Of a stretch of DNA of 64,000 nucleotides, positions 3,001-58,200 are shown in pieces. Source of the stretch: Marsupella aquatica (lineage: Eukaryota > Plantae > Marchantiophyta). Each line of letters opens with the position of its first letter. Position 1 is the first letter of the stretch. The position numbers and the translations under genes were made by a program. The stretch is taken from NCBI GenBank assembly GCA_973895155.1, contig OZ316891.1, positions 6,999,808 through 7,063,807 on the forward strand, written 5' to 3'. The notes beneath the pieces were generated by a model. That model saw nothing but the letters and a program-made list of their open reading frames with translations. It had not been told where the DNA came from and ran no database searches.

Positions 3001-3480
3001 TCTCTCATATCGAGCAGGCACGGCAGAAGGTGGCATTTCTTGGAGTTCTCTAAATGGGCATGCTGCTATTATGGAGGCCTTCGACTCAATGTCAGCTGTA
3101 CTTGGACAGGCTGATCTCAGCTGGGCTGATGTCTTTGTAAGTTCCACACGAAATCGAGCTTGCAAGTGTTAGAGAAAACCTGAAAACTACAACATCAGTG
3201 GGTAGCTTTTCCCAGGTTTGCATGCATTGGTGGTTGAGTACGCGGAATGCCTGGAATGTTGTTACTAATAGTGACCACGGTGCAGGTACTCCGGGTGTAC
3301 TTTGTTGTGGATAAGATAAGTGCTGATAGCTTGCGAGAAGCCCTTCTAGCAGTGGTGGGGGATTCCTTGTTCCAGAATGTCCCAGAACCGGCTCTCATCC
3401 CTGTTCTCGGTCTTGGAGACTCGGCAGAGCTGCAAGCTCTGATCGCTCTGGAGTTGACTGCTTCAGGAAGGCCTCGATGA
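18..3480 (+). CDS. DPH6: Diphthine--ammonia ligase (diphthamide synthetase) with C-terminal RidA/YjgF-like domains; 5' part lies before the window
   Basis: GT-AG exons 18-50, 215-297, 593-665, 934-1237, 1540-1871, 2226-2551, 2812-3136, 3286-3480 join in frame (1671 nt). Motifs: LVKVAAMGLDP, YGCNVCGEGGEYESLTLDCPLFK (Dph6 ATP-pyrophosphatase), VHVQSISSWAPCCIGPYSQA, YMAGQLGLDPPTM, LPKGALVEVAP (YjgF domains). Confidence 0.93.
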
Positions 3481-6923: not shown

Positions 6924-7676
6924 ATGGGGAGATTTCTGCTTGCAACACTGGTGCTGCTGAGCAGCTGGGCTGCCATTGCAAGTGCGGGAGAGTTGTGGCA
7001 GACTGAGACTTGGGCCAATGCTCATGCCACTTTCTATGGTGGAACGGATGCGTCCGGGACAATGGGAGGGGCCTGCGGATATGGAAACTTGTACTCGACT
7101 GGCTACGGAACTGACACTGCGGCTCTCAGCAACGCGCTTTTCAACAGCGGGCTCACCTGTGGAGCTTGCTTTGAGCTGCAATGCATTCAGTCCGAGTCGA
7201 GCTACTGCTACTCCGGCAAGAGCCTCGTAGTGACTGCCACCAACAACTGCCCGCAGGGTTCTTTCGGTGGCTGGTGTGACGCTCCCAAGGCACACTTCGA
7301 TCTGGCTTACCCAGCTTTCGCCCAGCTCGCTCAAGAGGTCGCTGGAGTCATTCCCGTCCAGTTCAAAAGGGTGGCTTGCGGCAAGACTGGAGGGGTCCGC
7401 TTCACCATGAATGGGAATGCGTGGTTCGATCTAGTGCTGGTTTCCAATGTGGCAGGAAAGGGAGATGTTTCGTCCGTGTCGGTCCAGGGCAGCGGCATGA
7501 GCCCGGTCTCCATGTCCCACAACTGGGGCCAGCTCTGGTCATGCGGCGCTAACCTCGTCGGCAAATCTCTCACATTCACGGTCGTGCTCGGCAGCGGCGA
7601 CTCCAAGACATTCACCAACGTTGCTGACAGTGGCTGGAGCTTTGGCTCAACCTACGAGGCCACCTCCAATTTCTAA
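6924..7676 (+). CDS. EXPA: Alpha-expansin, 250 aa, intronless CDS
   Basis: Signal peptide MGRFLLATLVLL..., AHATFYGG, GTMGGACGYGNLY, TAALSNALFN.G..CGACFEL, VTATNNCP, GGWC, HFDL motif, C-terminal MSHNWGQLW and WSFGSTY. Confidence 0.97.
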   Translation: MGRFLLATLVLLSSWAAIASAGELWQTETWANAHATFYGGTDASGTMGGACGYGNLYSTGYGTDTAALSNALFNSGLTCGACFELQCIQSESSYCYSGKSLVVTATNNCPQGSFGGWCDAPKAHFDLAYPAFAQLAQEVAGVIPVQFKRVACGKTGGVRFTMNGNAWFDLVLVSNVAGKGDVSSVSVQGSGMSPVSMSHNWGQLWSCGANLVGKSLTFTVVLGSGDSKTFTNVADSGWSFGSTYEATSNF

Positions 7677-15283: not shown

Positions 15284-17063
15284 CTAAATTGCCATATCCT
15301 CTTCCTGGTCAGACGACGAATCGGTATCGGACTCTCCCTCGTGCAGCATATCAGCTGCGAGAGTGTTCTTGTTATTGGCCGACGTTTTTCCAATCCCGAA
15401 GAGAGCGGCGGGAAGGGCAAGTTTGGCGAGCAAGAGCCCAATCGTAATGGACAATCCGACCACCATCATATCGAACACGAAGCCCATTCCGGACAGCACA
15501 TCATCCTCCAGCATGGCAGCCACCCCCTGGACGCCAATTCCTCCCGGAACCAACAGCAGAATACCAGAAAGAACCATCACGAGTGGCAGATCCCCTCTCC
15601 AGTACGAATACGCGGTCCCTGTGACTCCCACGGCAAATGCAGCTACCACCGAGGATGCACTCCCTCCCAGGCGGTAACCTGCTATTGTCGATACGATGAA
15701 GCCGACGCCAGAGGTAACGATCATCCCCGACCACTGATCCAACCGAGCGTTGAGAAGCACATTGGAGGCTACAGAGAACCCCACGAACCACAGAGGACTC
15801 CACCAGATGGACAGGTCGGGAAGGTCGCACTCCATGGTAGCAGGAGACTCCCAGAACACGAAATTCTCCCCCACGGCGATCCCAAACCCAAGCTGCAGCG
15901 CTGAAAATAGAGCGTACATGATCCGAGACGTACCTAGAGAAAGAAAAAAACACAGAAATCTTAGAAGAGAGACAGTTCACAGATCCTGCCCAATCTTGAA
16001 CCAGGTCAGAGTAAAACAAATTTAGGGAGACGATGCAAAGTCCGGACTGAAAGCAATCTGCCTTTTCACTGGGTCTTAAACCGAGCAGAAGAAAAGTTTT
16101 CACAATTGATTCGAGACGTACGTAAAGGAAAACAAATTCACACAACACTGTAGAGTTATGGTGAACTGTACCTGTGACATGGGCTTTGGCCACCATCTCA
16201 CTCACGCCTAGCGTGAGGGACAACCCCGGGAGGAGCTGCACCAGCGACGCCAGCACCATGGAGAAGAAGCAGAGGTTGAGGCTTCCGAAGAACAGGCTGA
16301 GCAGGCGAGCCGCGAAGGAGACCACCAGAGCAGTCACAAACTCCTGCACACTTGCGAAGAGGTTCGATTCCGCCGCGACGAGGTCGAAGAGTCCTACGAT
16401 TAAGCCCAGACCCAAACACATAAATGCGTCCCAGAGCGTCCCGTTGAAGAACAGGAGAGCGGACATCGAGGCCGAGAGAGAGTACCCGAAGAGACGCCAC
16501 CACCATTGTCCGAACTTCGGAGGAGAAGTGGCGATGGCCTTCAATCGCCAGTAAGCCAGGAGGAGAGGTGTCTCGTCCCTCCCAACGTGGTTGGCAAGGT
16601 GGTCTGCGCGCCCGAGCTTGTCAACGTCCAGCTCGTTTTCTACTGTGAGGATATGGAAGCCTTCCTCTTCTGTGTGGCCGGGGAAGCTCAGGAGGATCAG
16701 GGACGGGAAGACTGCAATGCTGACATCCACATCGAGCCTGTTGGCCGCTTTCTCGATGAGGTACTCTGTTCGGGATGCCGAGCTCCCGTAAGAGTGGAGA
16801 GCGATGGCGAGGCGCTGGAGGAACCGACAACGGAGACGGGAGTTTCCTCGACCGCCGCTCTTCTTGCCCTGCCACCGCCTAGCGACTTCTTCTTCGGTCA
16901 TGGTTAACGCCCGTCGGACATCGCGCGAGCGCCCCCCGTGGTTGTCCGAAGTGTTTTCTTCACCGTTCTGCATGTTCCGTTTCTTCTTCCCTCTGTGATT
17001 GCGCCCGTTGTCGCTGCTAGCCATGGCTCCCGCCGCTTCCATCAGCCTGGTCTTAAGATCCAT
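15284..17063 (-). CDS. Threonine/serine exporter (ThrE / Prm10-like) family membrane protein, 513 aa
   Basis: Exons 17063-16172 and 15933-15284 (GT-AG) join in frame as AHVTG/TSRIMYALF. Motifs FLQRLAIALHSYGSSASRTE, LVQLLPGLSLTLGVSEM and ILLLVPGGIGV match the duplicated ThrE/ThrE_2 architecture. Confidence 0.85.
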
Positions 17064-19054
17064 TGCGAGCCGTTCCGAATGCAATTGGCAACACGCCAAA
17101 TAAAATCCTACTTGAGCCTTCCTCACCTCACCTCACCTCAGCAAGACTGAGAAGCACGCATCTCCAGTGCAGAAGTAGAAAGAGACGACAACCTCGATCA
17201 ACATCTCTGACGGATTCGGAAAAGTGAAATCCTGAGATGAAATCTCAATTGCCATCCATGCGTGACTGTTTATGGAAGGCAATTTATCTCATCAACTCCA
17301 AATTTCTGCTTGATCCAATTCTTGCGAGTCCCTGTAACGGGCACTGCATAACACGACTCCTTTACAAGCTTGGACGTTATCTACCGGACACAACTGAAGC
17401 CGAGACTCTCGAGAGGTAGAAACTAGAAACCTTTTCCGTCTCGGACCGAATTAGCTGCCGAAGGATCCTTGCAAGTTTGGGTAGCAATTTGCAATATAAA
17501 CTTGCGAGAGAAGGAACGAGGCAAGGAAGATCGATGTAAAGCCTAACTAATCCCCTTCTTTCCTACGAATTCGAGTCGCATTAACTCCAACACCACAATG
17601 TTAGTCACAATGGCTTTGTTTTGCTTTCGCTCAACTCCAGTCTTGACCCGGAGCTCAATACTTTCAGACAGGGAAGGGCAACCATTCAGAAGAAATCAAT
17701 GCAGTCAAACGCGACGGCAAATGGCGCGGATGCTGGTGCTATCTGCTCGGATGGCAAGAATATGTGAGCAGGCAAAAGCTTTGGAGAGAAACGACATTCT
17801 TCGCACTACGGCTCGTGAGAAGCAAGGACAGACATTTGACAGGGATACAGAAATGCACCAACTCTTCTAGAAAAAGAAGCCCCTATCAATTCCAATGCAA
17901 ATCCATTCCAGATCGGAGCTTTCAGAAGTGTTTCTAAACGGATTCTGAAGACAATTGTGCCTTTAAAACTCGAAGGCTAGTCAGCCGTCGACGCGTTCGC
18001 AGAACCAAACCAAATTCCTTTGAACTATTCGGAACACAGTAATGAATTCAAAGAGCCTGCAAAAATGTGTCCACCTACATCATCCTCTCACGCGCACGAT
18101 TCGCACCTATCCTGCTTCTCATTTCCCGAATTGACACGGCCGTTCCAAAGAAGAAAACACACTGCATCATTCTCCTGCGCGGCTGAAGAATCTGCACTCG
18201 GTCAGCAAAACGGCAGTGAGGTACAAAACGTTCGCAAATTCTGGTACAAGAAAGTGTGATCCGTTTCAACTGGAGCTTCGTTTCTTCTTCAATGGACCTT
18301 CGGCTTCAGCTGGAGCTTCGTTTCTTTCTTCAATGGAGCTGGAAGCGCATCATCTCCTCGATCCCACGAGAGAGCTGCAAATTGGTCGTAAGTTCACTGA
18401 ACATGGATCACACGAACGCCATGGTGGAATTCTGTTCGCAACGAGACATTGTAAGTTGTACATTCGCGGATTGGGTTTACTCTGTAGTTCAGACACATCC
18501 ACATTGGGTTTGGGCCTTTGGTACCTCTACAGTAAGCTCAAGAGTCAAGGGCCAGTATGTAGCTTTACACTAGTAAACACTGTCTACGCTGTAGGGTTGT
18601 ACAGCATGTTACAATCACTTAGTATATTTTCTGGATCTTACTGATCTTACGGATCTTACTAATAAAGATTGATCCAAAAGTGTTTTTTCCCCCTTTTTCC
18701 TTCAAAGAAGCACTTTACTTAATTAATCAAAAAATTAAACCCATGCAAAATAAATCAAGAGGAAAAATGGCCAGACCCAAGAAAAGGTTGCAGGCCAATT
18801 GTCACACCAAGACCAAACACATTCAGTCAAGTGGACAAAGGCCAACATTGCAAAAATGAGTGAGAAGCAACCAGACCCTCGCCCAGACCCTTTGCCCACA
18901 GAAAAACAAAAGAAACCCGGGGAGAAATGTGGGCTGACTTAGCCCGATCCAGAAAATGAAGACCTGAACGGCTACACTTATCGCACATTAAATTTACATC
19001 AGTCATGCAAAGCAAAACATAAACCAAGACACATGTAATTCAAATTGAGACATT

Positions 19055-21790: not shown

Positions 21791-22010
21791 GATATGGAAA
21801 TGATACCCGTAGGTACGGTTTGGAGCTTTGAAGAGTCGTGGAGTCCGATTCAGCTCGATCCGAGGATCGACCGTCGTCCGTGACTGTGGGACTGTTGCGC
21901 TGTGGCGGAGGGACATCGCCACATCGGTATTGGCCACGCACGCGGCGACACGACGGCGTACCGCCGCCCAGAAAGGAATGTTCATGCAGCACTGTCGTTT
22001 CTTTCATTCC

Positions 22011-22076
22011 TTCCGCAGAAAATCTTTCCACTGAAAAGACAGGGAATGTTTTCCGCAGAAAATCTTTCCACTGAAA
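22011..22076. repeat. 26-bp direct repeat
   Basis: ttccgcagaaaatctttccactgaaa at 22011 and ~22050. Confidence 0.8.
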
Positions 22077-22983
22077 GACATGATCGACGATACGAGACCT
22101 GCATTGTTTGGATAGGATTTGTTTTGCTTTCCCCGATTTATAATTTGAAATTGATGCTCATAGACCACAACGTGTTTATTTTTGAAACCCCAATGTACCA
22201 CATTTCCCAGAATTTATTTCTTTATTTTTAAGGGAAAATTTGTGAAACCACACAGAAAGGGGGAGTCGGCCACAATAGTATTTGAGTTTACTTGTAATAA
22301 GTTGATGTTTATAATATATGCTATAGTAGGTAGGCTACACTTCTATCAAAAAGAGAGTAAAATTTTGATCATTTTGGTTGAGTTCATCATGGAATGCTGA
22401 AGGATAAATTTTGCAAGATAAATTTTCATTACCAACCCCACTAGGGGTCCGTTCCAAAATTCGAGACTCCACAGCATGCCATGTCATCATGACGTGCTCC
22501 AAACAGGTATGGACTGGTTTACAAAATAAAATTACTTCACCATTTGTGTTTGTGGCATGATTTTGGTAAAATTGAGGACGCCATGTCGTAAACCTTGATG
22601 TAAAAATGTTTGAAAATAATTATTTTATTTACCCTAGGTAACAAACTGTTCAATCAGTAGGAGGCCCACCTTTCGTGTTTTTTACCCTGAGTAACCGCTG
22701 CCCACCCGCATTCTGAATTGTGTTTCAATTGAATAATAACTAAATCTCTCTAAGCAAGTTGATCTGATGACAAAGTAATCGTGGCGATTTTCTCGACCTT
22801 CTGCTGTCACGAAGGAAGAAGTGGACATGACTCTATGTTGGATCACTCAGCACTCCTTTCCATGGCGTCATCATTACAGTTCCTAACTCGGTGATGCCTC
22901 TCGCTACTGTTAGATTGTCCAACAAGGCACGAGCAAACGAAAGAGAAGCAAGCTTAGCAGGGTTAAGTAAAGGCCTCGTCTAC

Positions 22984-23118
22984 GTGCAGATGGTGTTGAA
23001 GAGACTGGGCATGAAAGAAGGACATAGTTATAAAAAGTGTCAGCAGATGATCAAGGGAGTTGATGCGAACGGTAATGGGAAGGTGGACTTTCAGGAGTTC
23101 AAGGGGTCCACTAACTAA
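22984..23118 (+). pseudogene. Calmodulin-like (CML) C-terminal EF-hand fragment
   Basis: VQMVLKRLGMKEGHSYKKCQQMIKGVDANGNGKVDFQEFK matches the last helix-loop-helix of plant CMLs (DxNGNGxVDFxEF loop); upstream EF-hands are missing. Confidence 0.7.
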
Positions 23119-23620
23119 TTGTGTACTATGAAATATTAGTACTTGTATTTGTTTTATGTCTCCTCCCTAAACACGTGCTCGTGAACTGATTCCCCAGGAA
23201 ATTAAGTTTCCAAGAGCATTTGGACCCCTCATTTCTGGATTTTCATTTCTGGGTTTTCATTTCTTCCCACTTAAACCTACTCGACATCATATTTTCAGGC
23301 TTGACACATCTGCAAGGGCAAATTTGTTGCCCTGGACTATTTTTATTTTTTTAATTACTTATTTGAAGCTCAAACCTAATTACTACTAAGGCAGTTTTGG
23401 TCAGAAGATACATCCTTCTCGTTTGGCAAAGTTCTCATTGGAACTTTGAGTCGCGACTACAACTTTCACCTACTCGTAATTGCTCCGGCGTTGCCTAACT
23501 CCAGCGTTGAGCCCCTCTTAGATTTGCTACCATCATGGCCATTAGGGATGCAACTAACAAAGAGGAGGCTAGTAAGAGCAAGGACAAGACTTGAGAAAAG
23601 CGCGCTCCACTTAACTTTAT

Positions 23621-24242
23621 TGGGCCCATTGCCGATCACGGAAATATGAACTATTTTTCTGACGGATCACCATAGGGGCCCGAGAAGCCCCACATGAGCC
23701 CGATCATGGGGCCGCATATTTCTCGGCCAACGGACCCAGGGGCCAAAAGTTATGGCCGACTCAAGCCGCATGCTTGTAGTTTGGGCCCGTTGCCGATCAT
23801 GGAAAAATGAACTATTTTTCCAACGGATCACCATAGGGGCCCGAGAAGCCCCACATGAGCCCGATCATGGGGCCGCATATTTCTTGGCCAACGGACCCAG
23901 GGGCCAAAAGTTATGGCCGACTCAAGCCGCATGCTTGTAGTTTGGGCCCGTTGCCGATCATGGAAAAATGAACTATTTTTCCAACGGATCACCATAGGGG
24001 CCCGAGAAGCCCCACATGAGCCCGATCATGGGGCCGCATATTTCTCGGCCAACGGACCCAGGGGCCAAAAGTTATGGCCGACTCAAGCCGCATGCTTGTA
24101 GTTTGGGCCCGTTGCCGATCACGGAAAAATGAACTATTTTTCCAACGGATCACCATAGAGGCCTGAGAAGCCCCACATGAGCCCGATCATGGGGCCGCAT
24201 ATTTTTTGGCCAACGGACCTAGGGGCCAAAAGTTATGACCGA
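23621..24242. repeat. 161-bp tandem repeat array, ~3.9 nearly identical units
   Basis: Units start at 23621, 23782, 23943, 24104 (tgggccc.ttgccgatca.ggaaa.atgaac...); near-identical spurious ORFs at 23752 and 23913 confirm the period. Confidence 0.97.
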
Positions 24243-27200
24243 TTTAGACTCGATTAGAGTCGCCGCGCATCGATGGACCAAGAGGGGGTTGCCTGGACCA
24301 GGGGGGGTTGCCTGGACCAGAGCGGGGTTAGGGCCGTAACTTTTAGCCCCTTATGCCACAATTTGCGCTCGAGGCCAAGTTACAGAAGGTTTTCAATTAT
24401 CTTCGTTTCGAGCTAAGTGGCGGGGCCCACGGACCCTCGGGTAGGGGGCCAAAGATAGGGGACCAAAGCTGGTCCGGGGGTGGCAGGTCCCCAGAAGCAT
24501 ATATGAGGGGAGTGGTCCTTTCAAGTTTGAGCTCGAGCTGATCGCGATCAACGAAGATACGTCGTTTCGAGTTTTGAAGCGAAAACAAACATAACTCGAC
24601 GACCGGATCTCCGTTGGGGGAGTTCTTGGGCTCGTTGGAAAGCTAATGAAGAAATCTACCTCATGGTGCTCTCTGATTGTGCATTGGATGATTTTGGTTT
24701 TGAGGCTTGCAATGGGGGGAGTCCCTCTTGCCGATCCGAAGTCGAACAGTGACCAAACCGCATTTGGTTCCCATGGGGACCTGATGTTGGAGAGGTAGAA
24801 CCAAGTAGACTCTGGGGGCTGCCATTGAGATCTGGTCCCGATGCATGGTGAGAGGTTGAGCGGAACCCAGTTTCGCAAAGAGGTGGCTAAGATCTAGAAA
24901 TTGAATGGTCCCGGCGTGTTACTACTAGTTTGTGACAAACTGAGTTTGGGCCATGGGCATGTCCTGGAGGCAGGGCGGTCAGCCATTGACGGGTAGAAAG
25001 TGGGGAAGCTTGGGCGACATCCGGTAGATAGACTGTTCTGGACGAACAGTGATGTCGACCTTAGTTTCAGCTTATGGCAAGGCCATGCGGGCCTGGGAGG
25101 CTCTATCCGTTGACCTACTTACTAACGACTGTTGAGCTTGAGGCAAGACAAGGGTCTTGGGAGTTCTGAGATCAAGACAAGTTCTTACCGGTTGGTTGGT
25201 TGCTTGTGCAGATAGCAAAGACCGTTGAGCGACGGTTGTGCTGACGAGGGCAAGTGCGGCTTCGTATGGGAGGGTCGCTGACGACAAGGAGTATAGTCGG
25301 GGAGAACTTGCCCCAACATTCCGTGTTAGTGCAAGGTTCGACTTGTTTCAAGGCTGAGAAACGAGTTTGGATGGGCACGTGGTGGGAGGGCCACCACTCT
25401 TTGCTAGCACCAGTTCAGAGAACATCTCAATGACAGGTGTTTGGCATATTGGCAAAGTTCTCATTGGAACTTTTCTAGCACCAAGTTTAGGGCACATGGG
25501 TGTAAGGCATATGGGACGTGCAAGGTTCACTTTGGTTGTGCTTTGCTGGTACTGAAGACTGAGCTCTTATGTGTGAACTTTCATTGGCGTGTCATGGCTC
25601 TCTTTCATGGGCATGTGGAAGTGCAAACTTCTTAGAAGAACTAGGATTCAGGGTTTGTTTAGTGGCAAAAATTAGCTAGCTAGATTCCAGCTCTCTGAAA
25701 GTCTTAACCACTTTTGGCAAAATTTGGCTAGCTTTTCTGTCTACCATTAGCAAGTTTCCCACCTGGCCATAGGCCCATTAGCAAAAATGTAATGGTGTTA
25801 AGTCTAGGGATACCTGACACTCAGAATTTACAATAGGAAAATTAGATAAGGAATATTCCTAGCATCTTCTCCCTTCACACAATGTTACCTTTGCCACAAT
25901 GAATGGCAAAAGTAAAAACCTTAAAAATTACGCTACTTAGAGCGGCTACTGATCTTGGACCTAAAGTTGTTCAAGGCAATGTTTACTTGTTTTTATGCTT
26001 GTAAAAAGCATAACAAGGTTTTTGTGACCTAAGAATTCAAGCTTTGCTGAGTGATCATACTTAATAATTCTGTCAAGTCTGGAATTGCCTACTTAATTCC
26101 AAATTTCAATTCACTGTTTGCCTGATTGTGGAGGAGCCTGCCTTGGACATTATTGATTGATGCTTTTGTGGGTCATGCCAGTCATTCGATGCTTGCTTCC
26201 TACGGTGTACAGAAGATAAATGTGTATGTCTTCACATATTTTCAAATACTTTCCTAGTGTGAGCAGAATTTAGTGATTTCTGGTCCATCCCATAGCTCTG
26301 GTTATGGAACTCAGTTAGGGTGGGCCAATGCTGTGTCAATTACCCACCCTCTACGGCAGGAGTTAGAGCCTCACCCTAGTCTCATAGCATATATCTCTTT
26401 TATTTATTTTTCAATGGGCGCATGTAGTGCCATTACATCAGGCCCAAGCCCACCTGCGTGCAACCGCCACTTTCTGGATTTTTGGACTTCTGAATTTATG
26501 GATCCACACATAAATTTACAGAAAAGTTGTTCAAGTTATTGGTCAAGTGTTGCGGAGCGTGCTTTTGGAAAGTAGCCCAAGATCAACTCAAACAAATTTT
26601 ATGAGAGGTTTCAATTTTTTATGAGAGGCCTAAATGAATTGCTGCCATCTTCTATTCTGCTGCACTGCTTCAACTTAGGTGTCGCAACTGTAACAATGAA
26701 TTGCTGCAGCGTTTTAAGTGAAGCGACTTTTACAGTGAATTGCTGTAAAGTTGTTGATGCTTATCAAGTTTACAGGACGTCCGGTTACCACTCTATTGAC
26801 CACTCAATCTGTCAGGTGTTATTAGCACCAGTTTCCGGGACAAACAAGGTTTTTGCACCGGTACAGACTGCACTTTTCGAGAGCAGACTATAGATTCGCC
26901 CAACGAAGTGAGCGAGCTAGATTGATACTCCTCATAATCAGTATCCACAAACGAAACACATTAATGAGCCAATGTCCAACTCGATCGATGAAAGCCTGGT
27001 GTATCGCAATTCAAGTGACACTGTCCGACTATGGATTTGCAAATGTAAGAGACAAGGGTACATGAGTTATGTACTGTGAAAGTAACTAAACAGCATCAAT
27101 CTTCTGAGCCAGTTCAAATGTGCGTGAACTTCGGCTTCCACCTCAGTCAGTGAAATCAACATATTTACAACAATCGAATTTGCAGTGAGATCTGCACGAA

Positions 27201-27397
27201 ACTAAAGTTTGGCAATCCTCTAGTATGGAACAACGGGATCAATTATCTCCAACATCACGACTGGAATTGACAGTTGTACTGAGTCACATCTTGAATTACC
27301 TGCAGCTGCACGACATCTTGAGCATTGAAGCTTGTCGGCACGGGACGACCAAAATTTGGAATAGTGTACCCAAATTTACGAGAGCATCGGTGGCTGT

Positions 27398-30300
27398 CTA
27401 GGATTTACAGCACCTGAATTTTGCAAAGACATATGGATATTGTTTCTGATAGTAGTTTCTGAACGAGTCCCTCAGCATCGACGGATGTGTGACAGGCGAG
27501 GATCCTTTCAGAACAAAGTGATTGCCATCAAAGAAATCCGTTGAGTACTCTGGATACTCTGGCATAGCCTCAAATCCCGGGAAGGGCATGAAGGGAGTGC
27601 TCGTCCACTCCCACCCGCCCGTGCGCATCTGTTCCACTGTTGCCTCATGTTTGTCCACATCCAGAATTCGGTGGTACTCAGCTTCTGTCATGATCCGAGC
27701 TCCCACCCATCGACAGAAGGCCTGAGCTTCTGAGAAGCTCACAAACACAGGCTTGAATTTCACTTTAGACCAGTGATGAGTGGACTGAAACTCATGCACA
27801 TAGAACTCCCCTCCTACGAGAGACCAAGTTGCTGGGAACTTGACACCCTTCTCCTTGATGTGCTTGAAGTCGTCAGCATCCCACAAACTCGGGTTGTCAT
27901 ATCCACCTTCCAGAAGAAACCTGTAAAACTCTCCGATTGAGATGGGATTCGAACTCACAAAGAAAGCACTCTCAACTTTGGTATGAAACTGGGGATATTC
28001 GTTGTCCCACAAAAATCCACTCTTGGTTGCATCAGCACCAAGAACCACCTCTTCAGGTTCAATGGCGATCATCTTCGACTTGGATAGGAATCTCAGTATA
28101 GACATCGTAGTGAGGGGCTCCTCTCTCGAGGTAGAAAGGTTATTACTTTGCCAGCTTTGTGTCATGGTTCTCTCGAAGGTAGCTTTCCTCTCCTGTGCCA
28201 TCATGTAAATCAAAGTTTCCTGATGCATGCGCTCATGCTCGAGAATAAATGTCACAAGTTTAGACTTCCCCATCTTCATGTCAGTTGCGAGAGACTGAAG
28301 CACTCTCTCTCGGTTGGCCCTCACATAAGCCACGATTTCCTTCTTCGTTGGCCACTCAGCTGGGATCTCTGGGTGCTCGTGGCACTGAGCGGGATTCAAG
28401 ACACCCGGATCGATGCCTCTCGAGAACATGGAGTCGAGCCCTGATGCAGGCTCGTCAGGGAACATCTTCAGCTTCATGAAGGAACTCACATGACCACTGC
28501 ACTCGCAAAAGGAGGAGCAAACCAACGATATTAGGCTAATTGCACAGGGTGAATCTGGCCAACACCAATCCTATTCAATTGAGAGTACTTTCACATAACC
28601 CCAACTACTTAATAATCTCGAATTTCCTTTCCAAAAGCTGAATGTGGACACTTAAGTGACTGATGAAGATGGGAATAGATGAGATCACAGAGTTAAATTG
28701 GAACGGGATACTTCAATGCAAATTCACTTACTAGTAAAAGCAGAAAGGATGTCGCAGGTCGATGGGTTTGACTGCCCAGTTTGATAATCCCTGAAACAGA
28801 GTGTCTGTTTCTTGCCAGCATTGAACGAGAGCTTCCACATCAGAGAGTAACATTTGGCTACCGTACTTCTCGTTGCGCCAAGCTTTCAGCACGTGAAGAC
28901 CTGACTCCTGGGCCATGTACTGGATATCTTCCACAGTGAACTTTCTGGATATTTCCATCAACACCCTCTCTCCAGGGCTGTGGTTTCCGCCAGAGGAAAT
29001 TTTGTCAGTAGGTCGCACAAATCGTGATTAAATTGCATTCTGTCAGAATTGTGCAAGCAAAGTCGGCTAAAATTCGTACACCAGCGATCAAAGTTGGAGA
29101 CTCGGGAAAGGAAGACTCGATACGTTCACAAAAGTTAGCCTGAATGGGTGATGCATTTTGTTCTTTGTGAATTTTCCACGCACAGGCGGGCTCAAAGTGG
29201 CTCGATGGAAACGAAAACGTGATGCCATCAACTGAAAAAAGAGCAGAGCTGAAAAGCTAGAATTCGAAAAGCCAGCCTCACCTGATGTTGACGTGGTGTT
29301 GAAAGCTGAGGCCTCGTGGGAATCTAAGATACATCTCCACAAATCTGTCCTTGCTGTTGATCTCCACTTCATATACCCAGGAGTTCTCCTCCTCCTCCGA
29401 AGCCACGTACCCCAATATCTGAAGCGCATTTCTCATCCCGTTCTTGATGAACTTCTCCGTAACCCCTTCCCTGTCGTGATATGCTGCGTACATAGTAGCC
29501 GTTTTCTTCCACATATCTACATATCAATAATCCATAGTAAGGATCTCTAGTTAGTAACATCAAGGCCTGTGATAAAGGAATCTTGTGGTACCTCAAGTTG
29601 ACAGTATATTAAGTCGTGGACACGAAAGAGCAATGAAACCCAACTTCCATGTTTGACCTTGTCTTTAAGATTGTCAATAGCTTTCAACTCGGATCCTATG
29701 TGAATCACTACTTTTTCACGTGTTCGTATCCAATGGAGCCTTTTTACCTTCAAATTGTAGCGCATATCAAGCTACTGATCGAAATACAATGGACTTATCC
29801 ATAAGCGTCAGAAGGCAAAGATTTTCGCAATGACTGCCTTGAAATCGTCAACATTGGACTAAGTAGTACCACTTACACAAAAACTATAGATCAGGTTTGT
29901 AATCTATCCACTGACAATTGTGAAACCCGACATCGGAAACGGAGCTCACAGACGTGTAAGACTGAGATTGACTTTGACTTCGCCGTATTAACTCGAATGG
30001 TTATCAATTAAGTGCACGCAAGCATTTTGTGGGGGCTGGGCATTGGTTGGACACTACGATCTCGTGGAAAACTTTAGACGACATGAAACAGACAGAGGAT
30101 AGGAGACCCACCAGCAGCAACGAAGATGCGGCACCGGTAATCGACAGCATTCACCACAGCTTTGAAGAACGAGATGGCCTCGTCCGCTCGCAAATTACCC
30201 ACACTGCTGCCCAGCCAAAGCAAGCAAAGGAGATCGTCGGGATACTTCTCCCTCACTTGTCTCAGACCATCTAGGTAGTCCCCCTCCACCATATCCACGC

Positions 30301-31537
30301 TGAGCTGCCCCTCCACTTGAAGCATCAGGTTGCAGGCTGCCTCCTCCAGGAATGACGACGATACATCGATACCCACGAATCGACATCTACAACAAATCAT
30401 GGCAGGCAGCTTTATCCTTAGCAAAGCAAGTTGGCTCGGTTAGGAACATCCCGAAGAAATGGAATGGCCATATTTAGGTGCACATACCACTAACAATTGA
30501 TTTCATTTCAAGGCTGCATTAAACATGCGTCTCTTCAATCAACATGATTATAATTACCCTGATCTTCAAATCTACCTACCTCATGTGGGAACAAGGCTAC
30601 CTCTCACATTTCCAATCACCACAATTATAATGGTCACGTACAAACGTCAAATGTAATTAGTAATTGCAGTTGGTAAGTTCATCGGCTTTCCAATTAAGCG
30701 TATTTCAGCTTTCATCGCTTGAATATGCGTATCTCAGAGACACATGTACGGCACAATCTCACATGTAGGACTCACAGATTCATCGGCTCCATGTCTCAGA
30801 AGAAACCTTCAATTAATCGTCTTCGATTCAAGCTCAGCGACAGTTTCACCGCAAACATCTACTCTACTCCTGTTACAACTGATATCATTCTCCGTTGTCT
30901 AAGTGATCGTAGTTCTACAGATAAACCCTACACTCTGGTCCGAAAGCAAAATGAGAATGAGGGGGTCATACAGCCGGGGGGAAGGAACGCCATTGTTCCA
31001 TGCAACGCGATTCTAAATAAAGATTTACGAGGCAAGAGTTCAAGATAGGTTCCAGAGAAGACTCTAACATACAATTGTGAAGAAAGTCTCTCACCTTCCC
31101 TGACGTGCAATGACGGCACTAAGAAGTCGAGCAGTTTTCTTCGCAGAGCCACAGCCGAGCTCCACCAGCACACTACCTTCTGGAATGTAAGAGGCTATAT
31201 TGTCAACGTGCTCATCAAACATGTCATCCTCGGCCTTGAAGGGGTAGTACTCCTCAAGCCGAGTAATGGCTTCGTAGAGTTCCGAACCTTTGTCGTCGTA
31301 CAAAAAACGGGCTGGAAGCTCCTTGGCATCGAATTCCTTTTTTAATCCTTTCAGGATAAGCCCTTCCGGATCCAAGTCAGATAAGTCGGATTCGGATCCT
31401 TGTGGGTCCCTCTGGTACGCTTCATCGGCAGTCCACTGCAGCTGGTCATTGAAATCCTTTGTCGCAGCAGACAAGCGCCTCGGAGAAAGCTCGACAGCAG
31501 TACTGGCAGGCATGATTCCTGCAAGTGATATCGACAT
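27398..31537 (-). CDS. EGT1: Ergothioneine biosynthesis protein 1 (Egt1-type): N-terminal histidine SAM-dependent methyltransferase (EgtD) fused to DinB + FGE-sulfatase sulfoxide synthase (EgtB-like), 765 aa
   Basis: GT-AG exons 31537-31095, 30386-30112, 29516-29282, 28977-28732, 28496-27398 join in frame (2298 nt). EgtD motifs KELPARFLYDDKGSELYEAITRLEEYY, LVELGCGSAKKT, WLGSSVGN, AAYHDREGVT, VEMYL, MEISRKF; EgtB motifs LRHPFCFYYGH, FSRGIDP..NP.QCH.H.EIP.EWP, HERMHQETL (Fe-binding HxxxHxE), FLWDNEYP, GGWEWTST, FPGFEAMPEYPEYSTDFFDGNH. Confidence 0.93.
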
Positions 31538-31799
31538 CAGTGAGAACAAGCTTTAGTCAACCTTCAAGAGTAAGGTTCTTAAATACTTAGCCAAGTAGCT
31601 GCTTGACTCGGAGTTTTTGACCTCATGATTCATTTCTTGATCCAGCAAAATGAAAGTAACAAGGCCGGCTCCTAACAGCACCGGAAGCTCATACACACTG
31701 ATGCCGAATGGAGGCAGATGAATTCGATACTACATTGAACATGTCAGGTTCCGGGTTCAGCTCACAGTCAAATCTGTAACTCTTTAGAGTTCCCTTGTC

Positions 31800-31813
31800 A
31801 GGGTTTAGGGTTT
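31800..31813 (-). promoter_or_regulatory. Telo-box-like motif upstream of EGT1
   Basis: agggtttagggttt (AAACCCTAAACCCT on the minus strand), ~270 bp 5' of the ATG. Confidence 0.3.
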
Positions 31814-31852
31814 ACGTGTCGATGCATAGCATAGCTTAGGTGGGAAAGTGAA

Positions 31853-32070
31853 GAGCTCATGAAGCCCACATAAGGTGGATAGAGCTCTGACCACTTAATA
31901 AAACAAGAAGACTTCTAATCCAAATTGATTCTAGAGCTCATCTAGATGAACAAATTAGTTGAAACAGTGAACAGCTCATGAAGTCCACGTAAGGTGGAAA
32001 ATTCTGGATAGAGAGCTGACCACGTAAGAGAACAAGAAGACTTCTAACCCAAATCGATTCTAGAGCTCAA
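31853..32070. repeat. Imperfect ~120-bp direct duplication upstream of EGT1
   Basis: agctcatgaag.ccac.taaggtgga...gctgaccac.taa...aacaagaagacttctaa.ccaaat.gattctagagctca twice. Confidence 0.8.
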
Positions 32071-34723
32071 CAAGATTAAATAATTTCATACCCGAGAGGA
32101 TAGTATTCCCTGCTGTAGGTAGTGAGTCCGTCGACGATTAAGAATATTCACCCCTCGAAAACAATCTAGAGTTCTACTTATACAGTCTGCCGTGCGATCA
32201 AGCTGGGAGGGGAGTTCAATTGTCCTCTATTGCGCTGTCAAAGGTCTTGAGACATACGAATTGCAGGGCAAGCTCGGGGAGGCGGCAGGCATAGCATGCA
32301 TGAAGGCCAGTGAGTGTGAGTTGATATACGTTGATTCTACAATCTTACTCCACGTTTATATACGCAATCACACGCGAGCCACACTCTCGATCACTGACTC
32401 TTGGTCATACAGCTACGTACTGCATTAACAAACTCTAATCATCGCCTATTGGTCTCGTCGATTAGTGAACCTACCTGCCCCCGCAGACTGCAGGGACGTT
32501 GCAGTAAAGTGAAGGGTCTCGGAATAAGCTATGGCAGCGTCCTGGAATTTTCTCCGTTACTGCGATTTGCTACTGTTCGAATTATATCGGACCAGAGACC
32601 TGAGCAACCTTAACTAGTCTTTTAAAAATCCAGAGACTACGGCATACAAGCTAGACAAATGTACAACTAAACGCCAAATCCTTCACGGTGATGAGGTAAG
32701 ATATGTGATGACTCCAAATGCAAAAACTAAACGCCAAATTCATTATGATGAGGTAAGATACTTGATGACCTCAGGTTCGTAAACACCTTCCTCGCTGAAT
32801 TTCAGGCTGTATGAACTAGTCAGGACTCTGTCGACCGTGAACATTTTCTTATCTTTACAACGCGTGCGGATTGCATTGAGACTAATTTGAGAATTGAGAC
32901 CGATCGACGACCTCAAAGTGTGCGGAGGAGCTCGACGGACTGAAAGTGCATACGCACCCCGTCACAAAGGATGACATAGAGTCTGCAGACGGCCCTACAC
33001 GTGCGCCTCAGGAGAAAGTTCGCGGAAGACCGAAAGTTGCGTGTAGGAATGAAAAGGTGCGTGAAGACGGCGCATGCATCGGGGCTACAGTTGTGGTACT
33101 TTTGCATTCGACACTGAAATAGTACTTTGATCGAGCGTCGCTAATTAGCAAATTCTACGTGGTTTAAACATGACAAATGCAGCTTTTACATGTATTCTCT
33201 GAGTTCGTTGAGTTGGTTGCGTTCGTTGCCGACGTGAAGAATAACCTAAATTACGAAAGAACTGCTGTACAAAAGATATTTCTTCCACTGGGAATTACAG
33301 TAATCGTGCTGTACCTAAAGGTGCTTACGCGTCGACCTCCTCCACTCGAGCACTCGAGAGGGGACCCTGCGCACGAAGCATTCTTCCTTGCATTGTTCAT
33401 TGCATTCAACTTTCGCAAGTGCTAAAACGCATATAAATTTTTCTTGCACTGCAAGTGATACCCCTCAATTTCACAACGAACACATACAGAGTGTCGAATG
33501 CGGATTCTTCGCGAGATTCTTCAAACCCAACTTTCAATTGCAGGTCTACATCGAACTGGCATTTCAAATTCGTAGTTTCTCAAGAAATTACTCCGGAAGG
33601 GGCATAAGGAAAAAGAAGTACCTGGCTAGCTTCGCTGCTAACCTTTGCTCGGCAAGAATTGAAGCAACAAAGTGGAGAGAAGCATTTACAGCGCCATTGA
33701 CTGCAGCTGGCCAAGACTTACTAGGATCTGATGACAATCGACCACAAAGTTCCACTAAAACCTCCTTTATGCCACTCGAACCCGCCCGAAACACACAACA
33801 ACGTACGAGCTGTGCGATTGATGCTGGAACGATAAGTCAGAGCGAAACATCAGCCATTCATTCAATCCCCTCGCTTGTTCCGCGAATGATTGGATCATTC
33901 TGCATGTCCACATTCCTCACTTCAATTGCATGCGTCACCTTTCCCGACTCACCTTGAATTTGTCCTTCGCTGACTCGCCAGCTAGCAGGCTGTAACCAGA
34001 TGTCGGAAGCCCGAAAATCACCGAGAAAGAAGGGAGCAGACTGGACATCAAGCGCCATCTCCGTTCCTCCCTTACTAGCTCAGAGTAGGGAGGAGAAACG
34101 AATGAGCGACCTGGTAGCTAGGCAGTTAATAAAACGCCAATCGTATAATGCTGCTAACTGCTCCACATGCAAAGGACCACGTCGACGTGCGAGTAGGACA
34201 ACTCTCATCCGGTACTCTCCCGAAGCTTTGAACACGCCTACTTTGCTACTGTAGTGACCTTTCAGTACGAGCCATCAGCCATGTACGCAGAAGCCAAACT
34301 TGCCGGCAGCATTCATTTGAAATTGACAGCAATCCTATGAGAATGACAGAGGATATTGGACAGATATACACACGTTTCAGACCATGTCGATGACTTTGGT
34401 GACATGCAGCTACACGTGCAGCCATAATGTGTGACATTGATCATGTCTGGAAAAAATCAGACGATGTAACTGCGAGAGAAAGGCAATGCAGCACGGTCGG
34501 CTTTGGAGATTTGCAAGTGAGATTTTCGGAGAGAAATCGAGTATCACGACTCCGCACTACGGAGTACAATGTCGATAAAAACCTTACAAGTTGTTGTGTA
34601 ACTATGAATCATGAGCAATTCAGCATAGATGCCAGAAAATTGACGTGAGGTTTCCAGTTCCCGACGCAGAGTATTCCTTCTCCTGCACGGTCAGTACGGA
34701 AAATTCCTGCCCCTTATTCCTCG

Positions 34724-34850
34724 GACAACGACAGGAAGCGGGAATTAGGCCTCCACTTTCTGATGTCAGCCGAATCATGAAAATAATTTAATCAGACAAC
34801 GACAGGAAGCAGGAATTAGGCCCCCACTTTCTGATGTCAGCTGAATCATG
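34724..34850. repeat. 71-bp-period direct duplication
   Basis: gacaacgacaggaagc.ggaattaggcc.ccactttctgatgtcagc.gaatcatg at 34724 and 34795. Confidence 0.85.
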
Positions 34851-35917
34851 CAAGGAATTTCATCTAATTCCGATCTTCTGATTTGAATTCTGCCACGCAT
34901 GGTACATTTTGTGAAATTCTTGCTCCGAGCAGTCGTTACTGTCGCTGCTCTTCGTTGACTGCTATTATCCAAGTAAGAGAGCAGCTATTATCTTCCTGCT
35001 GCAATCACCTTGCTGTGAATTTCCCTCCATATAGAATCGTCATGGGAATCATCATTGTCGCTCTTCTTGTTAAAATAAAATTCAAGTTGTTCAGCGTTTG
35101 TCCATTCATCTTTCGACCCACTTCAATTTCACGCACTTTCATCATTCGGTCATCAATTTCATCGACAGTTTATCACCAAACTCGTCACCGGACTGACATG
35201 TCTGGACTGATGACTGAAATTCCGAAGCTACTGTAGGTCTAAACACTCGGCCAGCAATTGATTATTCCACAGCTCAAAACATGGAGTACTCTGACTTCTA
35301 GTAAACGTGTACACTCGCTCGCTGGACGCACTATAATGCTTCAACTAAGCACAACGCAAACATTCGTCATCTGGATCAAGTGACAAGAATGGAAGGGGAG
35401 GAGTAGAATTGAATGGACGGTTCCAGATGCAGTTGACAGAACTACAACGAAGCTATCCTCACGATTCCCAGCGACGAAATGTTTCCAAAGTTACCAAACA
35501 AACTGCATTGTTTGGTACAACAGTGTTTACAGTATCTATTGTAGGAAAAATTTATGATTACATCCCAGTAACATTCACTTTCCACCTACCCTATCGATGA
35601 GTGATTCAACCGAGAGATGGTCCAAACTGACAGAGATGATTGAAAGAATATGGTACACACAGCACAAAAGGCTCCTGCACTAACAGTCCTCTGTGATATC
35701 GCATTAGGAATATGCCCCACCATAATTATGTTGTCGACAATTATTCCTCGCTCCACTGTAGTTTCGTGTGTAGTTTCCCAGCTGGACAGCAGGACACCGA
35801 ATCCTTCTCCGATCTTGACAATCCTTTCTGTTGCCTGGAGAACTCTTTTTAGCTTTGAAACATTTCAGTGATATGATTGAGATTTGAGAGAATCGCATCC
35901 ACCGAGGGCTTCCCGCC

Positions 35918-36083
35918 AGGGAACAGCACCCCGAAGGTGAGACATGAGGACACGGTTACTCGTCGTAGAGCAGGCCGGCAGGGAACAGCACCCAGAAGGT
36001 GAGACAGGAGGACACGGTAATCGGCGTGGAGCACAGCACCCAGAAGGTGAGAGAGGAGGACACGGTTACTCCGCGTGGAGCAG
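35918..36083. repeat. Three ~55-60 bp tandem units
   Basis: acagcacc.agaaggtgaga.a.gaggacacggt.a.tc..cgt.gagca x3. Confidence 0.85.
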
Positions 36084-36961
36084 TGCTGTGAACTCGAAGT
36101 TGTCTCATTCTACTTGTGACTTACCCTGACATGAAGCGAAGCACATCCCGAAACCCTTCTGGCAGTTTCAACCCCTATTCGAATCTTGAGTAAGTTAACT
36201 GAGAGACTACGCTCAACTCACCAATAGCACCACATTACTGACAACTCTAATAATTTGACAAAGTCGAGAGTAATCGAAACTTGGCCATATATATTACTCA
36301 CAACTGTAACAATTGACGGAGTCGTGAGACACTTGAGGACCCTTCATTCCTTCAATGTACTTGAAGCGTGTGTGAGCGGAGGACTCGAACATTACTTGAA
36401 CATCACTGGAGAACTCGTAAACGGCACTTCACCCCACCAAGCTTCAGGCAGTGCCAGCAACGTTTCTCAGAAAAAGGTCTGGTCTCATAAGAGGGTAAGT
36501 GGTAAGCCTGACTGGTTTGTTAAATGTAATTGACTCAGGATTGTCGAATGTGATTGGACCATGGAGTCAGTGATACTTGTGAGATAGCTTCTGAATTCAG
36601 CCACGAAATAAATACGTAGCTCAAGGAAATGCCTCCCCGGGCAACCATGTGCTTACAGAAATTCGTACACCCCAAATTGAAAGTGTTCGAATGTTTGCTA
36701 ATGCAATCCGAACTGCTAAAGCCAGGGTACTTCAAGTTTTGATGGCTTATCGCAGCAACGCCTAGTGGAGAATCCTGACAGTGCAATCCTCTGCCGGAAG
36801 AGTGTAGATTGACAATGCTCAAGAGCTCCACTGACACAATATTTTCGCTGGCTTGAAAATTTTGAGAACTGAGTGGGAGGCGGAACAACCACCCCGCCTA
36901 AGCCTACCGGACCAAGAAGTGGAGCTGCAATCCGGGAAGACAACATCAGTCTTCGTTACTC

Positions 36962-55238: not shown

Positions 55239-58200
55239 ATGACGTCGAGACGAGCAGGCACACTTCAGAAGCTGACAGTGCTTCGGACTGCGAGCTTGCT
55301 TTTTGTTGTGTCACAGCTTACAACGACGGCCAGTGCACAAACGCTTTTCGACATCGACTTCTGCGATAATTGGCCTCAGGTCGGTCTTTCGAACGAATTG
55401 AATCTAGAGTACAATAGCAAGAGTGACTGGATAAGTAGATGCCCGAGTGGATGGTGGCCATTGTCCCTCGCTTTTGCTCGCATGTACTTACCTCAGACCT
55501 CTCAACAGTTTCGCGGTCCTCCCTGTCGAGCTTTCGGTTAGCACATTAGTCCCTGCATTAGTCCTGCATTTTCCCTTGAGCCTGTTTTTATATAGGAGGA
55601 CTAATGTGCTAGCCGATATCTCACAATCAGACACTCGTCATTCTTCTCCCCAGGATCCTGTGTGGCCTTTTTGGCAAAGATGTCAAATTAGCGTTTGCTA
55701 TCTCGAGAAGTCCTTCAAGCCAACCCTTGGAAGTGACAAATAGTCGTCTTGATTCTTAAATTTCAGGCTAGTTTGATATCTATCCACCATATCCGTTAAG
55801 TTTCACTAACCAAGTGTTTCTTTTGGAGTTGCTTGAGGCGTGCAGAAGTCATTTCTGTACCTAAATTTTCTATCAAAGAACAGCGTTACTTCTCATCTTT
55901 CCATGAATTCCAAGCTTGATTGATTGATTCCAGCTCGTGGATAACATTGTTTTCCAACTAATCAATTGCCAACACTGACAATAGACTGTTTGATTAGTTC
56001 TCGTGAGTATAACTTTCAAACTCAGATTTGGGTGACTTGAATTGCTCTATTATAGTTCTGTGCAGCCTCATTCACTGCTCTAGCGCGCTCAACATTGGTT
56101 GTTCCCAATGGGTTTAGAGTCTAAACCTCTTCGTTGTGATTATCAGACAAATTTGAACCTGTGTACCTTGAAAATTCACTTTGTTGTGCTCTTACCGATG
56201 TTTGGCCTTCAATTCGTACCTCAATCTAATTGAACATGTTTGGCCTTCGTATCTCTAGCTAATTGAACTTTGCTGTGTTGCTTCCGGCCCATGCAGCCAA
56301 ACACGTGCCCGACGCCGCCTACCTTCAACACCGTGAACCTCCAGGGGATGTCCGGGAAGTGGTACGAGATTGGCACCAATGCAAAATTCAAGCTATTCCG
56401 GGAGAACGGAATGGCGTGCAACACCGCAAACTACACCGTGGTGTCGACACCAGCAAACTTCTGGGGCGTCACGCAAAGCAATTTATCCATAGTGGACTCG
56501 GGGGTCAAGGCCATGGGACCGCTCTCGGGCTACGGCGTCGCGCAGGTCTCATTGGGGTCTAAAGCGCTTTGCACAAACGCTCGTACAATCTGCCATCTGA
56601 TGAGCAGCGACAGCCAGCTCGGGCAAGCAGTCACGCAGCTAGCCACCACCACCGGACAGCTCCTTCTGCTACATCCCATCGAAGCAGCTCAGCTGATCAA
56701 CGCAAGCGCTACCGTTGGTGCAGCCATCAACAGCATTAACGGAGCTCTCGATGCGCTCACGAAGAATGTGACGAGCATCCAGTCCGTAAACGCTCAGCTG
56801 AGTCAGGTGAACGGGAGCAGCCAGGCGAATTTGCAACAGCTCACCAGCGTGACTAATCAGGCCTTGATGGTCCAGAACACCATTCAGCAGGCTGTCGCCA
56901 GCATAGCTGCCGCTAAGGGCATCGTCTTGGAGGTAAACTGACTACATACTCTCGGAATGTACTGTTAATTCAGAAGCACTGCAATGTCCTTCGCCGAATT
57001 TGGTGCAACGGATTCAACTCATTCAAAATTGTCTAGGATATGGTCCGTCAGAGTTGTGCTTGTAATTAACATCGAATTGAAGTCCGATTTCTCGTCGAGC
57101 GTAGACGAGATGGTAACTAAGGTTTAAATGTGCTGTCTTCCATACATGACAGGTGACGGCCAAGATGTTGTTCGCGGGCGGAATTGTGCCAATGACTACG
57201 ATCCCGGATCTGGGCAAAGTGACATATCTACTGGCATCCGCGGAGCTCGCAATCATGGCGCAGGCAGGGGAGATAGAGCTGACGCTGTTCGGGATCAACG
57301 CCATGATGCCGCTAATCTCCATTGACAACACCAAGCCGTTTTCCCTTTCTTCCACGGGCACCGCTATGCAGAACGACACAGCCGCGGGTAGCCTCACTGC
57401 GAACATCCATGGAGTCGACGCCCCATTCCTCATTCTCGCCGTCAACGGCTTTGCCTCCTCGGGCTACACTTCAGCCCTCCTCTACTCCTGCGTTGAGGTC
57501 CCCAACGGCGACTACCAGCAAGGCCTCTTCGTCATCTCCAGGTCGACTATAATCCCGGTCTTCCAGTCACCGAATTATTGTTCGAGCAACAGTCAGAAAA
57601 TTATAAATTTATACCTTGAATTTCAAAAAGCTACCAAATTAATAACCATTTGTGTTTCTTGCAAGCCTTCTAATCCAGTCGGTCTATACAAGCATCGTCC
57701 GTTTTTCTGTTCACTTAAGTCATGGAGTAACGACCGATTTCCGAGGAATTTCTTCAGTGGAGTGTTACAGTCATTCAGTCATTCCTCGAGTCTTTGGGCA
57801 AGCTTCAAAGGCAGTTCTAAGGCTCGAAGTAAGCTCACCTAGGTCTGCTTATCGATAGAGTAGTCAGTCAACTTCAGTCACCAGTCAAGTACTGCTCCCA
57901 AGAAAACGGGTCAGACATCAACTGTAGCATGTGTTGACCTCCGCAAGTCGATCCAATTCGGTCCTTCAAGAAACCTCGATTGAAACGTTAACAGAAACCA
58001 AAACGAGCGAGAAAATATTTATCACTTGACCCGAATTGAATGTAGCCGGTAGCAATTCCCAGATCTAGAGACTGACCCTCACTTGGATAGCTACCGAGTT
58101 CCGATCCCAATGGCTTCTTTGCTAGTCCTCTTTGCCTATCAGGCGGTTCGATCTAACTGGCATATATATCTAACGCACTATTTGTCATATTTCGCTGATG

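Follow-up and report, generated by a model that had tools for sequence, protein, structure and literature searches.

An intact five-exon EGT1 gene in a leafy liverwort: predicted role in ergothioneine synthesis and possible origin of the fusion

The window analysed here is a 64-kb stretch (64,000 nucleotides) of the genome of the leafy liverwort Marsupella aquatica (assembly GCA_973895155.1, contig OZ316891.1, positions 6,999,808 to 7,063,807 of the forward strand); coordinates below are positions in this window. At 27398-31537 it carries, on the minus strand, a gene in which an EgtD-type histidine methyltransferase is fused to a sulfoxide synthase, the arrangement named EGT1 in plants. The gene is intact and its identity had been called correctly in the original prediction, made from the DNA letters. 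Joined, its five exons give 2298 nt, i.e. 765 amino acids (aa) and a stop codon with no internal stops, and all four introns start with GT and end with AG; the exons lie where they had been placed, and a different start codon is more likely (see below). The parts of the gene are:

31095..31537, minus strand: exon 1; N-terminal extension (low confidence) and start of the EgtD methyltransferase, with Y80, Y97 and GxG at 128-130
30387..31094, minus strand: intron 1; 708 nt, GT-AG, phase 2
30112..30386, minus strand: exon 2; methyltransferase, with N212 (Asn166 of EgtD)
29517..30111, minus strand: intron 2; 595 nt, GT-AG, phase 1
29282..29516, minus strand: exon 3; methyltransferase, with Y252 (Tyr206) and M301 (Met252)
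28978..29281, minus strand: intron 3; 304 nt, GT-AG, phase 2, junction gap-free against Calypogeia fissa P0001
28732..28977, minus strand: exon 4; end of the methyltransferase (E326 and S328, i.e. Glu282 and Ser284), linker and start of the DinB-like helical domain (R393-Y399)
28497..28731, minus strand: intron 4; 235 nt, GT-AG, phase 2
27398..28496, minus strand: exon 5; sulfoxide synthase, with putative iron ligands H402, H487 and H491, putative catalytic Y714, putative hercynine-binding N747-Y748, Y749 at the Asp416 position, and the stop codon

We infer the splicing pattern from homology: the independently annotated C. fissa protein P0001 aligns without a gap at all four exon junctions, with 655 of the 755 aligned residues identical. 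A hidden micro-exon in intron 3, where the frame seems shorter than EgtD, was considered and ruled out, as C. fissa aligns over this junction with a single one-residue difference nearby. Because P0001 begins at the residue equivalent to Met9 of the 765-aa model, the second ATG, at 31513 (757 aa), is more likely to be the start codon than the first ATG, at 31537. A tblastn search with P0001 found one EGT1 copy within the window.

In a Pfam scan exons 1 to 4 each matched Methyltransf_33, in profile order (5-83, 90-173, 180-246 and 259-295), and exon 5 matched FGE-sulfatase (E 4e-22), in agreement with the methyltransferase and sulfoxide synthase first assigned to the N- and C-terminus; DinB_2 was not matched by exons scanned singly, but the C. 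fissa orthologue has a precomputed DinB_2 match and a helical domain in its model. A histidine methyltransferase dependent on S-adenosylmethionine (SAM), followed by an FGE-sulfatase domain in one protein, is how EGT1 was defined by Kock et al. 2026 (PMC13358676), and both are present here in this order. The AlphaFold model of the C. fissa orthologue (predicted local distance difference test, pLDDT, 89; predicted template modelling score 0.87; residues 1-42 with pLDDT <50) gave structural matches to OvoA, EgtB-IV and EgtD. The best sequence matches in PDB were bacterial EgtB-IV (8vig, 8vih) and EgtD (4pim, 7scf).

The active sites were read residue by residue (sources marked ‘in part’ were available to us in part). 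According to the orthologue alignment and a site table, residues Y39, Y56, N166, Y206, M252, E282 and S284 of mycobacterial EgtD align to Y80, Y97, N212, Y252, M301, E326 and S328 of the liverwort protein, and GxG is kept; thus, all seven sites checked are conserved, including the Asn, Tyr, Met and Glu/Ser to which the original prediction had ascribed histidine specificity. The roles of these sites, save that of M252, are taken from PMC8593015 (in part), where Tyr56, Tyr206, Ser284 and Asn166 of EgtD are given as histidine contacts, and the title of PDB entry 4pip describes EgtD M252V/E282A as a tryptophan-binding variant. In the second domain the motifs FYYGH (398-402) and HERMHQE (487-493) were indeed found intact. 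H402, H487 and H491 are the predicted iron triad; H487, H491 and E493 with the upstream H402 show the H-X3-H-X-E iron motif and upstream His described in PMC4659905 (in part). Y714 aligns to Tyr377 of MthEgtB, for which a catalytic role is described in PMC10903977 (in part), and Y714 and Y717 both align to 4x8b.

The site string of the liverwort sulfoxide synthase, RHYH-RD-HMH-YY-NYYY, is identical in 6 of 28 other green sequences, while 11 of 16 fungal sequences have RHYH-RD-HMH-YY-NWYY, with Trp for Tyr748 as the sole change. With subfamily motif classes taken from bioRxiv 2024.04.10.588772 (in part, as are the motifs given here), the EgtB-IV motif RxYH--DxHxHYxNWFx was found save for Tyr748 in place of Trp and Tyr749 in place of Phe. 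The EgtB-I motif xSDH--RRHQHYYNWDR was not found; Y749 and Y753 stand at its Asp416 and Arg420. Since Asp416, which binds the glutamyl group in EgtB-I (PMC11237966, in part), is replaced by Tyr749, free cysteine is the likely sulfur donor. OvoA (8khq) and SenA (8k5i, 8ryz) have the non-heme-iron fold and three-His triad in common with the liverwort protein, but the protein lacks their substrate-binding motifs: RHYH, D429 and Y753 depart from the SenA motif xNEH--HRHxHYYN(F/Y)(F/Y)R, and neither the OvoA ending F(Y/F)AFx (YF-YAFF in all three OvoA sequences) nor a C-terminal methyltransferase, which in OvoA is also of a different kind (P0050-P0052), is found in it. As aligned, the active-site motif appears to be of the hercynine-plus-cysteine type common to fungal Egt1 and EgtB-IV, and not of the OvoA, SenA or EgtB-I type.

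We consider it very probable that the gene is orthologous to plant EGT1, being an intact fusion passed down within green plants, and that its product likely forms hercynine and, from it, hercynylcysteine sulfoxide, which precedes ergothioneine in the pathway. To judge by its conserved EgtD residues, the N-terminal domain would methylate the amino group of histidine three times in a SAM-dependent way. The C-terminal domain would bind Fe(II) via His402, His487 and His491 and, as its motif suggests, would use O2, with Tyr714 as the catalytic acid, to couple free cysteine with the hercynine ring at its C2. An unlinked C-S lyase dependent on pyridoxal phosphate (PLP), of the EGT2/L-cysteine desulfhydrase type, would then release ergothioneine; in Marchantia EGT2 is represented by Mp6g20160 and Mp6g09430. 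No PLP-enzyme family was matched in a Pfam scan of 298 of the 376 window frames of at least 60 aa, though short exons could escape such a scan; the absence of an Egt2 lyase from the window had also been noted at the outset. The lyase need not be linked to EGT1; in S. pombe the final step falls to Egt2, and a part of the conversion goes on even in its absence (PMC4020840, in part).

Several points weigh against this reading. With none of the bacterial NCBIfam models did the score of the C. fissa orthologue reach the curated cut-off (EgtD 202 against a cut-off of 291, EgtB 174/360, SenA (NF041186) 202/420, OvoA 172/400); fungal P0080 is likewise below the EgtD, EgtB, SenA and OvoA cut-offs. EgtB-IV and most fungi carry Trp at position 748, the liverwort protein Tyr, and the published 17-position motif was mapped onto the liverwort protein by alignment, from motif strings in the text of its source (in part). 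Thuja has both genes, yet its callus gave no ergothioneine (PMC13358676). In the available part of the same paper no plant EGT1 enzyme assay or knockout is mentioned (‘recombinant’ and ‘knockout’, no matches), so the function rests on correlation and homology. A rival view is that the product is a different histidine thiol or selenol (ovothiol, selenoneine), or hercynine only: the structures nearest to the C. fissa model include OvoA (8khq), SenA gave the top score among the sulfoxide-synthase NCBIfam models, and S. pombe Egt1 yields selenoneine too when selenium is supplied (PMC4020840, in part), which makes such a side activity plausible. We hold this for very unlikely as the main activity, as the (Y/F)AF of OvoA and the xNEH..HR..R of SenA are both absent, the OvoA proteins form a separate branch (100/100), and the three iron histidines and both tyrosines are intact, so that the second domain does not look dead. 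A grouping with ovothiol synthases, named in advance among the possible refutations, was not observed.

That the stretch comes from a fungal or algal contaminant, or that the gene is a pseudogene, we regard as scarcely credible. In sequencing run X1 a single contig with an even depth of 16.6 and no differences extended over 25342-38000, i.e. over the gene and its flank; X1 is possibly the source of the assembly and hence not independent. The gene was also covered by run X2 and by runs X3 and X4 from a second study. Runs of a second organism showed at least 11 coding differences, 7 of them missense, which could speak for such a reading, and 4 silent; among those listed, however, none gives a stop or touches a motif site. 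Furthermore, EGT1 orthologues are located on multi-megabase liverwort contigs, and the neighbours in the window are plant genes: an expansin, a U6 small nuclear RNA and a GAF-domain gene with best named relatives in C. fissa and Riccia sorocarpa. The check by read depth and linkage proposed with the original prediction thus gave no indication of a fungal contaminant.

Of 1393 candidate long proteins compared with exon 5, 52 scored better than E 1e-10; the top matches were C. fissa (90% identity) and Marchantia and Riccia (61-64%), followed by ferns, conifers, mosses and algae. Full-length identity was 86% to C. fissa (CAM6124876.1 and CAM6122641.1, with gap-free junctions, a start matching Met9 and no functional annotation), 57-62% to the complex thalloid liverworts Marchantia and Riccia (61-62% to Marchantia EGT1), about 48-55% to other land plants and streptophyte algae and 26-30% to fungi. 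These values point to a leafy liverwort near Calypogeia as the host; an angiosperm, which would have conflicted with Kock et al., was discarded in view of the 86% identity to C. fissa and of both trees. Such searches and the residue alignments support both the enzyme assignment and the plant origin that had been proposed. Domain order and motifs are the same as in the published plant EGT1 proteins (Mp3g17070, Mp3g22110, Physcomitrium Pp3c20_13320, Anthoceros and Klebsormidium; PMC13358676, in part). Mp3g17070 is 61% identical to our query and falls in the same liverwort clade in both trees; it is our P0006, named MPTK1_3g17070, and is found in the available part of Dataset S1 of that paper, in which ‘Calypogeia’ has no matches. 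Marchantia has two EGT1 genes, whereas one copy is present in our window.

Fungal Egt1 (a type III sulfoxide synthase; S. pombe SPBC1604.01 and N. crassa NCU04343; PMC4020840, in part) has the same Methyltransferase-DinB-FGE order and a cysteine-type active site as here, but forms a separate, sister clade, with 26-30% identity to the sampled fungi; the Met of the query at the EgtD Met252 site is replaced there by Ala, Gly or Ser, and its Tyr748 mostly by Trp. Bacterial EgtB-IV and EgtD have in common with the query the RxYH..D..HxH.Y.N motif and all EgtD substrate residues checked; they are, however, encoded by separate genes (fused at none of the best 80 of 553 bacterial loci), and NWF of EgtB-IV is NYY in the query. 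By its motif, the liverwort sulfoxide synthase would work like EgtB-IV, but fused and eukaryotic.

Quick trees were built from 82 sulfoxide-synthase and 79 methyltransferase rows, taken from the homologue proteins and 80 bacterial loci; careful trees had 60 and 55 rows, respectively, after near-duplicates and some long or partial rows were dropped. The bacterial scan covered 26 of 64 parts and the best 80 of 553 loci were kept; the trees contained only one or two ascomycetes, neither S. pombe nor N. crassa being included, lacked named red and brown algae, and had several long deep branches. Support pairs are given for the careful sulfoxide-synthase tree and then for the careful methyltransferase tree. 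The query joined Calypogeia with 100/100 in both; the liverworts, including M. polymorpha 3g17070, formed a clade (100/99 and 100/96), as did the green plants (100/94 and 100/98) and, excluding plants, the fungi (100/100 and 100/99). The phylogeny with fungal Egt1, bacterial EgtB/EgtD and OvoA that had been suggested as a check thus places the liverwort gene among land-plant and green-algal orthologues, and the gene tree follows plant phylogeny back to chlorophytes. Green and fungal fusions, with five further fused proteins (P0045-P0047, P0049 and P0073), formed a group separate from the sampled bacteria (99/98 and 99/96), suggesting that the fusion arose once and very early in eukaryotes; just outside this group stood a protein of the amoebozoan Pyxidicula with reversed domain order (94/82 and 98/81). 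We saw also that P0216, an Egt1 recorded under the angiosperm Anthurium amnicola, scores among Glomeromycota/Mucoromycota matches, probably owing to fungal contamination of that record.

Our preferred account of the origin, held tentatively and somewhat short of probable, is that green EGT1 and fungal Egt1 go back to one fusion, from an EgtB-IV-like bacterial branch, before the split of fungi and green plants, with ergothioneine synthesis ancestral in eukaryotes. The same domain order and near-identical active-site motif of fungal Egt1, along with the common clade of fused fungal and green proteins, could also result if liverworts or early plants had taken up the gene from a fungus, such as a symbiont of the Mucoromycota or Glomeromycota, and host introns had been gained later. 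This we judge most improbable: the fungi are monophyletic with plants excluded, the tree tracks plant phylogeny, Met at EgtD position 252 is kept in 26 of 28 other green rows and in none of 16 fungi, and in approximately unbiased (AU) tests on the sulfoxide-synthase tree, in which all three groups tested were chosen after the quick tree was viewed, liverworts with fungi (p 2.15e-30) and green plants with Mucoromycota/Glomeromycota (p 1.03e-6) were rejected. The label ‘fungal-type’ used earlier therefore holds for architecture and active site and fails for descent from any sampled fungus; likewise, of ‘ancient or horizontally acquired’, ancient fits best and transfer from sampled fungi is rejected.

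An independent green fusion of bacterial egtB-IV-like and egtD genes, with the likeness to fungal Egt1 due to parallel fusion, is unlikely but has more to be said for it. In BLAST comparisons unfused bacterial EgtB-like proteins share 33-36% identity with the C-terminal domain, against 26-30% for fungal Egt1, bacterial two-domain proteins exist as Atlas clusters (domain order is not given there), and five fused proteins of unplaced source stand near the green clade. On the other hand, both domain trees unite green and fungal fusions apart from bacteria, fused genes were found at none of the best 80 of 553 bacterial loci (most have egtB and then a separate egtD), and a clade of green plants, P0046 and 17 bacterial EgtB was rejected, if more weakly (p 0.012; group named after the tree was viewed, with partial bacterial sampling). 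Bacterial loci matching residues 62-755 had been taken up as same-order fusions and were discarded, being egtB followed by a separate egtD. In Acidobacteriota and some Pseudomonadota (loci L008-L080), an EgtB-IV-like gene is directly followed by egtD, as separate genes; these EgtB-IV-like genes have a cysteine-type motif as in eukaryotic Egt1. Returning to the common origin of green and fungal fusions, the trees fit both a single ancient eukaryotic fusion and a transfer between the stem lineages before either radiated, and either may have occurred.

The window contains several other features:

793-3172, plus strand: exons with two Ribonuc_L-PSP matches (Pfam), by their architecture likely the 3′ part of a diphthine-ammonia ligase gene
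6927-7676, plus strand: expansin in a single frame, DPBB_1 and Expansin_C
15287-17132, minus strand: two-part ThrE threonine/serine exporter gene (PF06738, PF12821), of a family mainly bacterial and fungal
22000-26000: high-copy repeat region just downstream of EGT1, whose contig depth, when summed, exceeds that of EGT1 by a factor of tens to thousands
23620-24242: 161-bp tandem unit inside this repeat region
36962-37465, minus strand: GAF-domain gene (fRMsr)
56267-57842, plus strand: two long frames of 224 and 230 aa, both lacking Pfam matches, which read like one spliced secreted protein
59596-61249, plus strand: Copia-type retrotransposon gag-pol remnant (Pfam)

Weak Pfam matches to SARS_3b, Maff2 and VASt in window frames were below the cut-off and were taken as chance. 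The GAF-domain gene is a candidate for a bacterial-derived liverwort gene: after C. fissa and Riccia sorocarpa, whose proteins are annotated without the second cysteine stretch, its best relatives are bacteria, e.g. Gemmatimonadota (59%), and a 2021 preprint (in part) reports fRMsr in just a handful of non-fungal multicellular eukaryotes. The gene is frameshifted, mis-assembled or spliced from an upstream exon, because its counterpart of the C. fissa start codon, the ATG at 37428, lies in a different frame.

The novelty implied by the original prediction did not hold, as both plant EGT1 and the synthesis of ergothioneine by algae and land plants in sterile culture are already on record. Kock et al. 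2026 (PMC13358676) found EGT1 in streptophyte algae, in all bryophytes, lycophytes, ferns and gymnosperms examined and in one chlorophyte, with none in angiosperms, and detected ergothioneine by liquid chromatography-mass spectrometry in sterile cultures only of plants with both genes. Ho 2015 (PMC4659905, in part) described Egt1-like proteins of the same domain order in Physcomitrella and Auxenochlorella, a reversed order in brown algae and a lack of the methyltransferase in red algae. The family was published in April 2026, and the gene described here is the orthologue to be expected in a liverwort. It adds leafy liverworts to the listed EGT1 range, and its residues make a case for hercynine and free cysteine as the substrates of plant EGT1. 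Only the tree adds something that the papers found do not contain: it speaks against a transfer from fungi to plants and in favour of a common eukaryotic fusion of great age. The available part of PMC13358676 has a species cladogram and no gene tree (‘horizontal’, no matches), and beyond that paper and PMC4659905 we found no eukaryote-wide Egt1 gene tree or liverwort study, although Jones et al. 2014 (Gene 549:161) may treat the origin; in the papers found the origin question looks unaddressed. If such an old fusion is true, ergothioneine synthesis would not be a speciality of fungi and bacteria; it would have been lost in animals and flowering plants, and it is the loss that would need explaining.

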